A stretch of DNA of 64,000 bases, taken from the sequence record NC_070992.1. One strand, given 5' to 3'. Shown here piece after piece: positions 24,972 to 36,709 of the stretch. The notes under the pieces were generated by a model. The model saw only the letters and a program-made list of their open reading frames with translations. It ran no database searches and had not been told where the DNA came from. Source of the DNA: Escherichia phage Paul. Positions within the stretch are counted from its first letter, which is position 1. Each line of letters begins with the position of its first letter. Made by a program: the position numbers and the translations under genes.

Positions 24972-26816
24972 TTAATGTGTGTGCATCCAGTTAAGCCCAA
25001 TCTGACAATCAGATGCCAGAGGACATTCCATGTTCAAGTACTCACCAGCCTTCTTAACACAAAGCTCGGTGTGCTCTTTAAGTTTCTGTACATCATTACG
25101 GTTCACTGAGAATTGACCTTCATCATGCATATCAATTACCTTAGCACAACGAACCCCATCCTTCTCAATCCACTTGTTAAGGAACATCATAGCATATTTC
25201 ATAACAACAGCACCGGCACATTGCAGGAGTGTGTTAAGGGCTTTATGAACCATAACTTTACCAGTGGCATCTCGTCTCATTGTAATCTTACGACCATCAA
25301 CGCCAATCAAGTATCCCTGAGCAGCCTTTTCTGTCATACGATCAATGAGGATTGCAATACATGGGTTCTCTGCTAAGAAACGTGCTCGCATCACTGAACC
25401 TTCGTCAGCCCCACCACCTACAATTGAACCAAGCTTAGCATCACCAGCACCATAGTTGAATGCATAGATAAACGTTTTAGCGTTGTCACGAGTAGGAAGA
25501 CCAGCAAGTTTCTGGTTGTGAGAGTGAATATCACCTTCAAGGAGGATATCACGATACATAATAGCAGAAGCTAAACCACGTTCTGCCAGAGCTTTCTTAG
25601 CTGGATTATTCTCTTCTATTGCTTCAGCAAGCATGTCCCTACACTCTTTAATGAGGTAGTGTGCAAGCATACGCAATTCTAATCCAGAACCATCATACCC
25701 CAAGAATACCTCTTTACCAGCGGGTATGTAATATTTGTAAGCACCTACAGGCTTGTCTTTCTTCCCCGGCTTACCTTTCTCATAAATTACGTTAGTACCT
25801 TTTCGTATATAACAACCATCAGGAACAACGTTAGTAATAATGAAAGGACGAGAGTGATCATCATCTGAGTTATAGTCAGACTCAAACAGACCGCGACACT
25901 CATGACCAAACAAACCACGGGAGGGAATATTAACCACGATACGATGTTTGAATCGAAAAGTCGGCGTAGCGCAGCTGTTAGCTTCTGCCGAAAGTTTACC
26001 ATCTTCGCGCTCCTTTGCTATAAGTCCACTAATAAGACCTAGCCTGTGAGCCGCTACAACGCGTCTCTTAAGCAAACTTCCGACACTCCCTAGCTCACCC
26101 CCTAACCCTTCTTCAAGAGTCTCCTCGAGGTTTGTAGGAGCTGTAGGCCACTTGTTTGAGGTAGCTAGTGCTATCTTAATCTCATCAAAAGTGATAGGTC
26201 TACGTCGGTTAGGATTTAAACCTAAACCAAATACATAAGCCTTCATGTAGTTCTTAGTTTTAAACCGAAAATGCTTCTCTAAGAACTTTCTAATATCAGC
26301 GTCAACCATCTCGGCTGTCTGCTTCTGTTTAGCATTACCTCGCATCCAAGCTGAATACCATGCTTGGTATGTTCCATACTTCCGCATATCTTTCTTGATT
26401 TCAAAAGTATTCCAAGGTTTCTTTGATACGTTAAACTCTGGAGGAAGAAAACCCTCATCCATAAGGGCTTCTTTAACTCGGGCATCTTTCGATGGGTCAA
26501 AGTCTACGTACTCAACACAGGTGAATGCTCCACCAATGTCTTCTCTCTTAAGTCCAACTCTATCACAATAGGCTTGAGGCCATTTCTGTAAAGCTCCAGA
26601 CTTCTTAAACGGCTTCATGTAAGTAGAGCCATCTAGTCTCATCTTAGGTAAGAGAGGAATTAATTCTTTGTCAATATTAACAATAATCTCTTTAAGGAGG
26701 TGAACATACCACCGAGCATTTCTTCGGTTGAAACTCACTCCGTGCTTTGCTTGCTTAGAGATTATATCAGCGACAGTCATCTCTGTCAAAAATGGAAGAG
26801 CGTCCGGGTTGCTCAC
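24972..26816 (-). CDS. DNA polymerase, family A polymerase domain (T7 gp5-like, lacks the exonuclease domain)
   Basis: Motif A DGSGLELRMLAH, motif B RDNAKTFIYAFNYG, motif C HDE; no Exo I-III motifs in this ORF. Confidence 0.85.
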   Translation of the reverse strand: MSNPDALPFLTEMTVADIISKQAKHGVSFNRRNARWYVHLLKEIIVNIDKELIPLLPKMRLDGSTYMKPFKKSGALQKWPQAYCDRVGLKREDIGGAFTCVEYVDFDPSKDARVKEALMDEGFLPPEFNVSKKPWNTFEIKKDMRKYGTYQAWYSAWMRGNAKQKQTAEMVDADIRKFLEKHFRFKTKNYMKAYVFGLGLNPNRRRPITFDEIKIALATSNKWPTAPTNLEETLEEGLGGELGSVGSLLKRRVVAAHRLGLISGLIAKEREDGKLSAEANSCATPTFRFKHRIVVNIPSRGLFGHECRGLFESDYNSDDDHSRPFIITNVVPDGCYIRKGTNVIYEKGKPGKKDKPVGAYKYYIPAGKEVFLGYDGSGLELRMLAHYLIKECRDMLAEAIEENNPAKKALAERGLASAIMYRDILLEGDIHSHNQKLAGLPTRDNAKTFIYAFNYGAGDAKLGSIVGGGADEGSVMRARFLAENPCIAILIDRMTEKAAQGYLIGVDGRKITMRRDATGKVMVHKALNTLLQCAGAVVMKYAMMFLNKWIEKDGVRCAKVIDMHDEGQFSVNRNDVQKLKEHTELCVKKAGEYLNMECPLASDCQIGLNWMHTH

Positions 26817-26832
26817 TTTATACTCCTTTAAA

Positions 26833-27255
26833 TTATTGGTAAAGTAAATCTGTAAATGCTTGGTTATCTTCTATCACATCTAACATGGTAGCTTCGTCAC
26901 TGTAAGCCCTAACCGTCCCGTTGACAACTGTCCAAGGAGGAGGTGGAGGTGGTGCATGGTTAGCCCTAGCTTCACGAGGTTGCTCTCGTACTAAATGAGC
27001 CACAACCCTTTGATTAGCAACTTCTTCTCTTTCTCGAATAGCTCTTTGGATGTAAGCCAGTTTCATACCCCAAGCTTCTTCAAATTCTTGAGGGTGTTTA
27101 TCGCTGATAACCACATACTGACGTTCAGGAATACCAGAGCGAATCTCTGATAATAGTTCATGGAACAGGTCCAGTTCGTGCTCAGTGAGATTCATTTCAA
27201 TATCATCCCACTTGAGAACTAGGAAACGGTTTTGGTGTCTAGCTGGTAATGGCAT
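26833..27255 (-). CDS. hypothetical protein
   Basis: 140-aa ORF with a poly-Pro stretch. Confidence 0.35.
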   Translation of the reverse strand: MPLPARHQNRFLVLKWDDIEMNLTEHELDLFHELLSEIRSGIPERQYVVISDKHPQEFEEAWGMKLAYIQRAIREREEVANQRVVAHLVREQPREARANHAPPPPPPWTVVNGTVRAYSDEATMLDVIEDNQAFTDLLYQ

Positions 27256-27418
27256 CCTACTCCACCTCTACTTCAATGTAAGTTCTCTCGCCAACATCGT
27301 CTTTTAAGACCCATGACTTGGCATCTTCTTCCGACTTAAAAGCTTTCACAACGCTGTATCCACCTTCCCATTCATCACCGAACCAGCGCTGTCCTACGTA
27401 AATGTATTCTTTCATCAC

Positions 27419-34794: not shown

Positions 34795-34806
34795 TCTTCT
34801 TCCTTA

Positions 34807-36150
34807 TTAACGAATGTTTTGTGAATTTAACAGATGGTCTAATTCCCCACCAACCTGAGGCTCTAATACTTCAGGGTTGTTGTCAACAAATCTATCAGCG
34901 AGATTGCGGCTGACGGTCTCAGCTAACTCACCATGAGAAGGGATATCAAGATCACCGACAGTGGGACTCTGAGCAGATGCTTCATCAGTCCATATAACAC
35001 GAGCAGCTTGGTCAATACCACCAACAGCAAAACCCTGACCAGAGAACTGGTGACGGCTAGCAGTCAAACCATTTGACAGACCACTAGAACGTCTAGACAA
35101 CCACCGATCAAACGAATCGCTGGTAACACCAAGAGCCTCTTCAAAAGATGTTCTACGAGTAGGGCTTTCTCTTCGTAACTCTTGTGCTCGACGCATTGCA
35201 GGGGCTACAAAAACCCCTTCAATTGCATTATGTCGGTTAGGTTCTTCTTCCCGACCAAGTAAATCTCCACCTGTATTGGTTGTTAGGTTTGTCAACCCTT
35301 CAGACCAGTATGCTCTAATATGACCAGAACCATGAAGACTAGACATAATCTGAATCTCTTCATAAGGGATTCCAAAGAATCGACTCATGTCACGATTAAC
35401 ACAATACTGAGCACTTGTTGTATCCTCAATAAGAGCAACCTGACCTCGTTCGTTGACCAGATGATTAACTGGTTGAGGTGTGGGAAGATATCGAGTTTGG
35501 GCCATGTATTGATGTGCAGCTGCTGGAGAGGAAAACCTCAACACTTGCGAGTTAGGCCACTTCTTGTGAACATACCTGATTTCACGACTAGAAACAACCA
35601 CTGGACAAGGGGCGGTCATAGCCAAATATCCGTGAGAAGTCATGAATAAGTTGTCAAGAGTCATCGCACCACGGCACATCATAGGAAAATTATCCAATAC
35701 CTCTTCAATAGAAGTAGGATAATTAAACATGAATTGGATACGAACCCCATTCCACTGAAACTCAATAATATCAGTGAATGTTAATTGAGAACTCCCAGCA
35801 TAGGATTCGTTTGTAGCTTCAGCAAGAAGGGATGAATATTCGATATCTTGTGACTCTAGCCATTCCTTCACATTACTTTCAATCTCTCTTCCAAGCATTT
35901 GCCACTGATCAGTTGGGACGAAAGTGTTTTGAGTTCTTGGTGTTTGTCCTCTGACAATAAAGATATCAATGTCATGTGGAGCTGTGTTGTTAAGGACAGC
36001 ATCACGAATAGCCCCACCAGTAATGATGGGACAGATACCGTCTGGAATCAAGTTGTTGTTAATCAACTGTTCAATGAAGTGACGACCAACAGTGATATCA
36101 GGTTGTTGAGCAACCTTATCTTCAATTTGGTTAATCGGGATAACAATCAT
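34807..36150 (-). CDS. Pol-beta-type nucleotidyltransferase, CCA-adding enzyme / poly(A) polymerase-like head
   Basis: ITGGAIRDAVLNNTAPHDIDIFIV matches the GGxVRD ... DxD head motif; track ORF 34807..36207 trimmed to the Met after the exonuclease stop. Confidence 0.45.
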   Translation of the reverse strand: MIVIPINQIEDKVAQQPDITVGRHFIEQLINNNLIPDGICPIITGGAIRDAVLNNTAPHDIDIFIVRGQTPRTQNTFVPTDQWQMLGREIESNVKEWLESQDIEYSSLLAEATNESYAGSSQLTFTDIIEFQWNGVRIQFMFNYPTSIEEVLDNFPMMCRGAMTLDNLFMTSHGYLAMTAPCPVVVSSREIRYVHKKWPNSQVLRFSSPAAAHQYMAQTRYLPTPQPVNHLVNERGQVALIEDTTSAQYCVNRDMSRFFGIPYEEIQIMSSLHGSGHIRAYWSEGLTNLTTNTGGDLLGREEEPNRHNAIEGVFVAPAMRRAQELRRESPTRRTSFEEALGVTSDSFDRWLSRRSSGLSNGLTASRHQFSGQGFAVGGIDQAARVIWTDEASAQSPTVGDLDIPSHGELAETVSRNLADRFVDNNPEVLEPQVGGELDHLLNSQNIR

Positions 36151-36151
36151 T

Positions 36152-36709
36152 TTACATTTTCCAATATAATGAAGGTGGGTCGTAAGGGTCAAATCCCGTG
36201 AGTTCACACAAGAAAAGATAAACCTTAACAGTTAAGTTAACGTCCTGTTCACAATAAGTAAACATATCTTCAGTGAAAGCATCCCATGCTTCCTCTTGCT
36301 CACCGTAATCACCTTTAAGTTCCTCTAAGAACTCACCCCATTGCTTCAAACCATGACCTCTTGGGCCACGTCTAGGGTCGCCTTTCGGATACTCAGGACT
36401 GTCACCAATACGGTCAGGTTTAAGATATCGACTAAGACATAAAGTGTCAAAGACGTTAAAATGATATTTAATCAGATTGGGATACATTTTCTTCAGAGCT
36501 GGTAAGTCGAAGTCAATAATATTATGACCTACGAGCACATCAGCTTCTGTAAGTTTACGAATCCCATCTTCAATTTGGTGAGGCCGATAGCCCCACCTTT
36601 CACCAGTTTCAACATCGAAGATGTAAATACACCATACTTTAGTTATATCATCGTACAGTGCATTACTCTCGATATCGAATGCAAACACTTTCTTCTTTTT
36701 CTTTACCAC
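36152..36709 (-). CDS. 3'-5' proofreading exonuclease (T7 DNA polymerase N-terminal domain homolog, separate gene)
   Basis: Exo I FDIESNAL, Exo [13 protein letters not shown], Exo III YCEQDV; resembles the T7 gp5 N-terminal region. Confidence 0.75.

Follow-up and report, generated by a model that had tools for sequence, protein, structure and literature searches.

Separation of a T7-like DNA polymerase from its proofreading exonuclease has been described for several phage groups. Every LUZ24-group phage encodes the polymerase and the proofreading 3'-exonuclease as separate genes (PMC3517423, 2012), and a similar separation was reported for phiEco32 by Savalia et al. 2008, as that work is cited in PMC3517423. 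Separate 5'-3' and 3'-5' exonuclease subunits were later described as common to all Kuravirus-like phages as well as to 7-11, Privateer, Vp_R1 and BUCT695 (PMC9965538, 2023). In S-SBP1-like T7-like cyanophages, fission into exonuclease and polymerase genes has taken place as well, leaving adjacent genes that originated from a +1 frameshift (Czernecki et al. 2023, PMC10201439), and an AlphaFold2 model of the S-SBP1 exonuclease and polymerase products superposes on the fused enzyme of Syn5 (PMC10201439). For phages of the C3 morphotype, a conserved thioredoxin was proposed to couple with the T7-like polymerase, improving its processivity (PMC7881722, 2021). Here, the corresponding locus was analyzed in a stretch of 64,000 nucleotides from Escherichia phage Paul (NC_070992.1; the whole stretch is called the window in the following, and positions refer to it). 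Three separate open reading frames (ORFs) on its minus strand encode a 3'-5' proofreading exonuclease (36152..36709), a short thioredoxin (31962..32234) and a polymerase (24972..26816), just as a sequence-only reading of the window had described them.

The phage is a Kuravirus (phiEco32-like, Gordonclarkvirinae) and constitutes one further isolate of this group. A megablast search with positions 24972-36709 matched 97 phage records, nearly all of them Escherichia or Shigella phages of ~75-78 kb. The best-matching records display 92-94% nucleotide identity across the whole region, and Kuravirus vB_EcoP_WFI101126 (WFI101126), the closest annotated relative, is found among the best rows with ~94% identity over 97% of the query. 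At the protein level, the polymerase is 100% identical to a cluster representative named DNA polymerase of Shigella phage SGF2, and it shares 98.2% amino-acid identity with the phiEco32 polymerase. Since all genes from ~18 kb to 64 kb lie on the minus strand, the direction of transcription is from high to low coordinates. The explanation favored for the locus, and regarded as very probable, is a T7 gp5-type replicative polymerase made as two polypeptides, with a thioredoxin in an accompanying module of cargo genes.

Exonuclease and polymerase genes

The exonuclease gene starts with GTG and encodes 185 amino acids (aa), equivalent to residues ~1-200 of T7 gp5. Its product matches Pfam DNA_pol_A_exo1 (E 1.3e-8), and among PDB sequences T7 gp5 is the sole match at E<=1 (residues 3-178, E 7.5e-12). 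The DEDDy signature is complete, comprising Exo I (DxE; D12/E14), Exo II (Nx3D; N63/D68) and Exo III (Yx3D; Y152/D156); these residues are invariant or nearly so in 59 homologs and correspond to T7 D5/E7, D65 and the YxxxD motif ending in D174. An AlphaFold2 model of the protein reaches a predicted local distance difference test (pLDDT) value of 94.5, and in a fold search of this model against the PDB T7 gp5 chains make up the entire set of the best 27 matches (E 2e-11 to 3e-9), and another family first appears at 2e-5.

The polymerase gene, which also starts with GTG, encodes a subunit of 614 aa with thumb, palm and fingers, equivalent to T7 gp5 ~206-704. It matches Pfam DNA_pol_A (E 8.8e-23), and a phmmer search against solved structures gives E 1.5e-32 for T7 gp5 vs 3.9e-6 for Klenow, while a profile of 79 homologs aligns to T7 gp5 residues 213-704 with a probability of 100 and E 5.6e-58. 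The polymerase model has a pLDDT of 92, and Foldseek again returns T7 gp5 for the best 27 PDB matches (E 6.9e-26), with the next family at 3e-16. Motif A (D375/E380), motif B (R443/K447/Y451), motif C (H564-D565-E566) and the C-terminal H614 are present; the residues of the three motifs align with T7 D475/E480, R518/K522/Y526 and HDE 653-655, and the catalytic residues are invariant or nearly so in the homolog alignments. Tyrosine Y451, which occupies motif B position B3 (T7 Y526), is invariant in the 79 homologs. Motifs A-C, the B3 tyrosine and T7 gp5 as closest solved relative are features of the T7-like family-A cluster #5 (PMC10201439); a further feature of this cluster, a 3'-5' exonuclease domain on the same polypeptide, is absent, as the polymerase begins at about gp5 206.

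Both products fall on one and the same PHROG profile, phrog_17, with the exonuclease at positions 667-826 and the polymerase at 836-1233. The two genes thus represent consecutive parts of one T7-type polymerase that is divided at the interdomain linker, and no portion is missing or present twice. On T7 gp5, the exonuclease spans residues 3-178 plus ~25 residues more and the polymerase follows from 213; the cut in the family-A, gp5-type enzyme lies in the linker between exonuclease and polymerase, at about T7 residues 200-212. In addition, the exonuclease matches phrog_403 and phrog_38876, PHROGs families that carry the name 'DNA polymerase exonuclease subunit'. Its homologs occur in two forms. 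All 66 of the word-indexed homologs are stand-alone proteins of 101-247 aa, and in an exhaustive search the best 150 cluster representatives include 82 of >550 aa and 37 of <=250 aa, the exonuclease match of the long representatives being N-terminal among the matches listed. Hence, fused exonuclease-polymerase relatives exist alongside stand-alone exonucleases.

The exonuclease gene stops at 36152 and the polymerase gene starts at 26816, which leaves 9,335 bp between them, an interval that holds 30 coding sequences in WFI101126; the sequence-only reading, which had counted more than 20 genes in between, was right in this respect. The same split arrangement is found in all 97 matched records. 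Beyond these, the order primase-helicase, exonuclease, variable gap and polymerase recurs in Privateervirus, Lahexavirus, LUZ24-like Pseudomonas phages and metagenomic contigs, with gaps of 2.3 kb in LUZ24 (Bruynoghevirus; 8 small ORFs, gp24 and gp25 overlapping), 3.2 kb in an 85-kb metagenomic phage contig, 5.3 kb in Cronobacter phage vB_CsaP_009 (Privateervirus), 9.8 kb in Aeromonas phage LAh_9 (Lahexavirus) and >10 kb in a 119-kb contig. As the split is common to Privateervirus, Lahexavirus and LUZ24-like phages, the fission is old; it is also stable, and the interval between the two genes took up cargo genes of varying size.

On its upstream side, the exonuclease gene adjoins a gene for a T7 gp4-like primase-helicase (36703..38493, minus strand; 596 aa; Pfam DnaB_C 9.9e-11, weak Toprim_2 match), a neighborhood already pointed out from the sequence. 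The stop of the primase-helicase gene overlaps the exonuclease start by 7 nt, which suggests coupled translation. The exonuclease subunit would thus be produced together with the primase-helicase, and the polymerase from a gene located 9.3 kb further downstream with respect to transcription. Exonuclease and polymerase products would then re-associate non-covalently into a gp5-like holoenzyme, working with the primase-helicase.

Alternatively, the 185-aa exonuclease might be an independent nuclease, acting, e.g., in host DNA degradation or recombination, while the polymerase works without proofreading. The genes are separate and 9.3 kb apart, and a terminator-like hairpin with a T-run (28001..28024, minus strand; 10-bp stem with 6 GC pairs, tail TTCTTTTATA) separates the exonuclease-side from the polymerase-side genes, a terminator being annotated at the matching place of WFI101126. 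Exonuclease and polymerase therefore belong to different transcription units, so that their stoichiometry is not guaranteed, a point that speaks for the independent nuclease and counts against the proposed re-association. Nevertheless, an independent nuclease is considered improbable: the specific relatives of the exonuclease are N-terminal domains of T7-type polymerases, exonuclease and polymerase abut on one profile with neither overlap nor gap, and synteny with primase-helicase and polymerase is conserved. Moreover, the stability of family-A polymerases reportedly depends on the exonuclease domain, and for S-SBP1 the two products are predicted to assemble into the fused architecture again (PMC10201439). 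An origin of the split in faulty sequencing or assembly, or in a frameshift within a single gene, can be dismissed, since 9.3 kb with ~30 genes lie between the halves and the same arrangement occurs in 97 independent records and in distant genera; assembly error and frameshift had been raised by the sequence-only reading.

The polymerase gene itself, uninterrupted in the window, is interrupted in some relatives. In Bas89 (PQ850613.1), a joined polymerase coding sequence spans 2.6 kb, and in BUCT695 (OL799327.1) and LUZ24 (17999-20305) an endonuclease gene separates two polymerase pieces; PKM.Hi.22.6 is also among the relatives listed with an interrupted polymerase. Some metagenomic polymerase products (P0014-P0017) are ~450 aa long, with only 72-74% of the protein being covered. 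All this is consistent with mobile introns or homing endonucleases.

Another observation within the polymerase gene is a perfect match to the sigma-70 promoter consensus in codons 10-19 (26761-26789, minus strand), which consists of TTGACA, a spacing of 17 nt and TG-n-TATAAT (extended -10) and thus matches at 12/12 positions. Over the 161 bases surrounding it, phiEco32 and many other Kuraviruses show 100% identity. In 4E8, ECBP2 and Bas89, the relatives of ~75% identity that were compared, the -10 element, which encodes the conserved A-D-I-I, is retained, but the -35 element reads ATAACG or TTAACG. The putative promoter was considered as a sign of a different polymerase start codon; this idea was rejected, as divergent relatives share both the position of the start and the residues at the N-terminus.

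Thumb insert and thioredoxin

At the tip of the thumb, the polymerase has a probable shortened equivalent of the insert by which T7 gp5 binds thioredoxin (26487..26645, minus strand; codons 58-110). In the profile alignment, these 53 residues stand opposite T7 gp5 262-338 (77 aa), making the insert 24 aa shorter. In the model it is ordered, with strands 59-66 and 98-104 and a helix 78-87 at a pLDDT of ~90, and its second half is clearly homologous to the T7 insert (T7 325-PYTPVEHVVF-334 vs 97-AFTCVEYVDF-106). Known contacts between T7 gp5 and thioredoxin are E319-K90, E330-R73, T327-I75, V329-R73 and P325-A93 (PMC5984650). Among the gp5 residues involved, T327, V329 and E330 are represented by T99, V101 and E102 of the polymerase, and the position of E319 falls into a 7-residue gap in the polymerase alignment. 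An insert of 50-55 aa is present in 79 of 79 homologs, with G96-P/A97-F98-T99-x-V101-x-Y103-x-x-F106-D107 conserved, which makes the shorter equivalent of the thioredoxin-binding domain, docking strand included, an apparent trait of the whole family. As the docking strand is kept across the family, binding of some thioredoxin by the insert is plausible. An alignment to T7 gp5 had been suggested as a way to look for a thioredoxin-binding loop; it recovers the docking strand, but in an insert of reduced length.

The thioredoxin gene encodes 90 aa, and the identification made from the sequence is borne out by a match to Pfam Thioredoxin (PF00085, E 4.5e-13). Among PDB sequences, E. coli TrxA is matched over residues 24-105 (E 2e-7; identity ~30%). 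The N-terminal ~20 residues of TrxA are missing and only positions 22-102 of the Pfam profile are covered, i.e., the protein falls short of a full-length thioredoxin fold. The active site is C12-A-P-C15 (CAPC instead of the canonical WCGPC), and S-I-P is conserved. Changes relative to TrxA are W28Y, W31Q, G33A, G74S, K90L and A93M. Across 15 phage homologs with identities as low as 49%, C-x-P-C and the cis-proline show strict conservation, as would be expected of a working redox protein. The TrxA sequence used for comparison was taken from LR745708.1, a deposited T7 genome with E. coli trxA between a chimeric tail-fiber gene and gene 17.5 (locus L004, 229-558); this record apparently represents an engineered T7 supplying its own processivity factor.

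With respect to distribution, a search of the whole LUZ24 genome found no thioredoxin (best E 0.96, with a positive control in the window at 8e-59), although the LUZ24 polymerase has the same 50-55-aa insert. In two metagenomic relatives, a search of the 10 kb flanking the polymerase on each side likewise revealed no thioredoxin. Nor does the LUZ24 annotation include cargo genes for dCTP deaminase, ThyX, PhoH or a Dps-like protein. Lacking both thioredoxin and cargo, LUZ24 indicates that the thioredoxin co-varies with the nucleotide-metabolism module and not with the polymerase type; to judge from the split polymerase and insert of this phage, a thioredoxin gene is dispensable for this type of polymerase. 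In LAh_9, a short thioredoxin homolog, gp130, matches the profile of Kuravirus thioredoxins with E 1e-8; its gene follows immediately on two genes for ribonucleotide reductase, is adjacent to an NrdA.1-like gene and lies ~14 kb beyond the polymerase, thus outside the exonuclease-polymerase gap.

For the phage thioredoxin, a role in redox chemistry and the supply of deoxynucleoside triphosphates (dNTPs) is judged likelier than one in processivity and receives a slight overall preference. The cargo interval between the polymerase halves contains, besides the thioredoxin, genes for a nucleotidyltransferase, a dCTP deaminase, a Dps-like protein, ThyX and PhoH; as part of this module, a truncated thioredoxin with its redox site kept would feed dNTP synthesis, e.g., by reducing the host class I ribonucleotide reductase. 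Several observations do not sit easily with this proposal. No ribonucleotide reductase was found among the large ORFs of the window scanned against Pfam, so that the enzyme reduced would have to come from the host. The interval between exonuclease and polymerase includes the thioredoxin gene in both Kuravirus and Privateervirus. The docking strand of the insert is kept, as are R73, I75, P76 and G92 of TrxA in the phage protein. Finally, polymerases of the larger genomes are extended by two insertions, at residues 147-168 and 389-416, which, among the genomes checked, were seen in thioredoxin-carrying lineages and could form a novel docking site.

Alternatively, the phage thioredoxin might be a dedicated processivity subunit on the shortened thumb insert, giving a three-piece replicase of exonuclease, polymerase and thioredoxin that is independent of host TrxA. 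Such a protein would be the first phage-encoded processivity thioredoxin. The conserved docking strand, the four TrxA residues kept in the phage protein and the gene position between exonuclease and polymerase speak for it; moreover, thioredoxin and polymerase are among the few middle genes common to all five C3 phages compared (PMC4281155). This role is nevertheless rather unlikely. The insert of LUZ24 occurs without any thioredoxin gene, and the LAh_9 homolog resides beside ribonucleotide reductase genes. The redox cysteines are strictly kept, though processivity in T7 does not need the redox activity of thioredoxin. Besides the missing N-terminus, K90, W31 and G74 of TrxA are altered, of which K90 and G74 are tied to gp5 binding: K90 pairs with E319, and the exchange G74D in TrxA abolishes binding to the T7 enzyme (PMC5984650). 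In cyanophage Syn5, the phage thioredoxin was redox-active, and AlphaFold3 put host thioredoxins, not the phage one, at the thioredoxin site of the polymerase (bioRxiv 10.1101/2025.10.05.680603). The suggestion of the sequence-only reading that the phage protein may take over the processivity role of host thioredoxin therefore retains the docking strand on its side, yet is not favored. A stricter version, in which three phage genes specify a host-trxA-independent holoenzyme of the gp5/thioredoxin type whose exonuclease is delivered stoichiometrically with the primase-helicase by translational coupling, is likewise rather unlikely. What weight is left after the redox and processivity roles falls to both roles in combination or to something else.

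The same reading had offered a second role, the supply of reducing equivalents to the phage ThyX, whose gene is ~200 bp away from the thioredoxin gene, a single small ORF lying in between. As a flavoenzyme, ThyX is reduced by NAD(P)H, and it is not known to use thioredoxin. Owing to this conflict with established ThyX chemistry, and because the LAh_9 thioredoxin homolog adjoins ribonucleotide reductase genes and is separated by ~16 kb from the gene for thymidylate synthase, a function as ThyX reductant is highly improbable.

Neighboring genes

Directly downstream of the exonuclease gene, a nucleotidyltransferase is encoded (34807..36207, minus strand) that matches phrog_12715 over residues 20-452 (E 1.3e-239) and displays a weak PolyA_pol head domain, i.e., the head domain of poly(A)/CCA-adding polymerases. 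It is annotated with 436 aa in WFI101126, its length being ~436-466 aa, and its true start is probably located ~30 codons inside the ORF. Further genes of the interval, all on the minus strand, encode a dCTP deaminase (34261..34794; Pfam DCD 3.6e-34), a Dps/ferritin-like DNA-binding protein (32484..33095; Pfam Ferritin 2.9e-7, phrog_3636 8.1e-55), the flavin-dependent thymidylate synthase ThyX (31084..31740; Pfam Thy1 1.8e-43) and a PhoH-like ATPase (28763..29494; Pfam PhoH 4e-56). Hidden ATP-cone, glutaredoxin and reductase domains were sought in the small ORFs of the exonuclease-polymerase interval, and none was found. In three relatives, a small ATP-cone protein is encoded directly after the Dps/ferritin-like gene (L005 5306-6080, L010 16458-17197 and L011 2418-3189); an ATP-cone domain was not detected in the small ORFs near the Dps-like gene of the window. 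Farther downstream, a separate FEN-like 5'-3' exonuclease analogous to T7 gp6 is encoded (17945..18763, minus strand; Pfam 5_3_exonuc_N E 1e-5, under the curated cut-off), in accordance with the description of this enzyme as separately encoded (PMC9965538).

The C-terminus of the primase-helicase (36703-36882) forms an acidic tail with a terminal tryptophan. In T7, gp4 has an acidic, phenylalanine-terminated tail that touches the thioredoxin-binding domain of the polymerase; by analogy, the tail observed here suggests that polymerase and helicase make contact as they do in T7. Upstream of the primase-helicase, a cluster of genes for a COOH-NH2 ligase, an amidoligase, a glutamine amidotransferase and an ATP-grasp protein (39835-46124, minus strand) is syntenic with LUZ24 7377-13075. 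A gamma-glutamyl cyclotransferase (GGACT) gene adjoins this ligase cluster in LUZ24 and WFI101126, and the annotation of LAh_9 lists a similar pair of aminotransferase and RimK-type genes.

Comparison with known systems

Regarding the noteworthiness attributed to the locus from its sequence, both the split and the idea of a processivity thioredoxin are already published (PMC3517423, PMC9965538, PMC7881722), the former having been on record from the time of the genome papers on phiEco32 and the LUZ24 group, the latter since 2021. The present analysis adds the 53-residue insert with its docking strand, the occurrence of this insert in the thioredoxin-less LUZ24, the truncation and substitutions of the phage thioredoxin, and the association of the latter with nucleotide metabolism. 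Separate proofreading and polymerizing subunits afford a natural test of how much weight the covalent link between exonuclease and polymerase has for fidelity and stability, and the split polymerase could be a source of modular polymerases.

Compared with phiEco32 and other Kuravirus members, the genes are the same and nothing of substance differs. LUZ24-like phages (Bruynoghevirus) encode gp25, named 'DNA polymerase exonuclease subunit', and gp34/36, named 'DNA polymerase part II', their polymerase being homologous with 39-40% identity across 98-99% of its length. LUZ24 shares the order of primase-helicase, overlapping exonuclease, gap and polymerase as well as the 50-55-aa insert and the cluster of amidoligase, glutamine amidotransferase, ATP-grasp and GGACT genes. 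In contrast, its gap is only 2.3 kb long, thioredoxin and annotated nucleotide-metabolism cargo are missing, the polymerase lacks insertions 147-168 and 389-416, and the polymerase gene is interrupted by an endonuclease-carrying insertion.

The S-SBP1 system resembles the present one in that a T7-type PolA is split at the boundary of exonuclease and polymerase and the thioredoxin-binding region is shortened. Its genes, however, are adjacent and overlapping as the result of a recent +1 frameshift, whereas 9,335 bp and ~30 genes separate the halves here. Because of this distance and because the arrangement is common to several genera, the fission in the lineage of the window is older than that of S-SBP1, and we infer that it was a separate event. 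T7 itself provides the best match for both halves with gp5 and shares the tyrosine at the Y526 position, the C-terminal histidine, an insert located where thioredoxin binds on the thumb, and a gp4-like primase-helicase whose acidic tail has an aromatic residue at its end. In T7, however, gp5 is one polypeptide whose thioredoxin-binding domain comprises 77 aa instead of 53 aa and contains E319, a position lost in the gap described above, and host thioredoxin is used, whereas the phage of the window encodes a divergent, truncated thioredoxin of its own.

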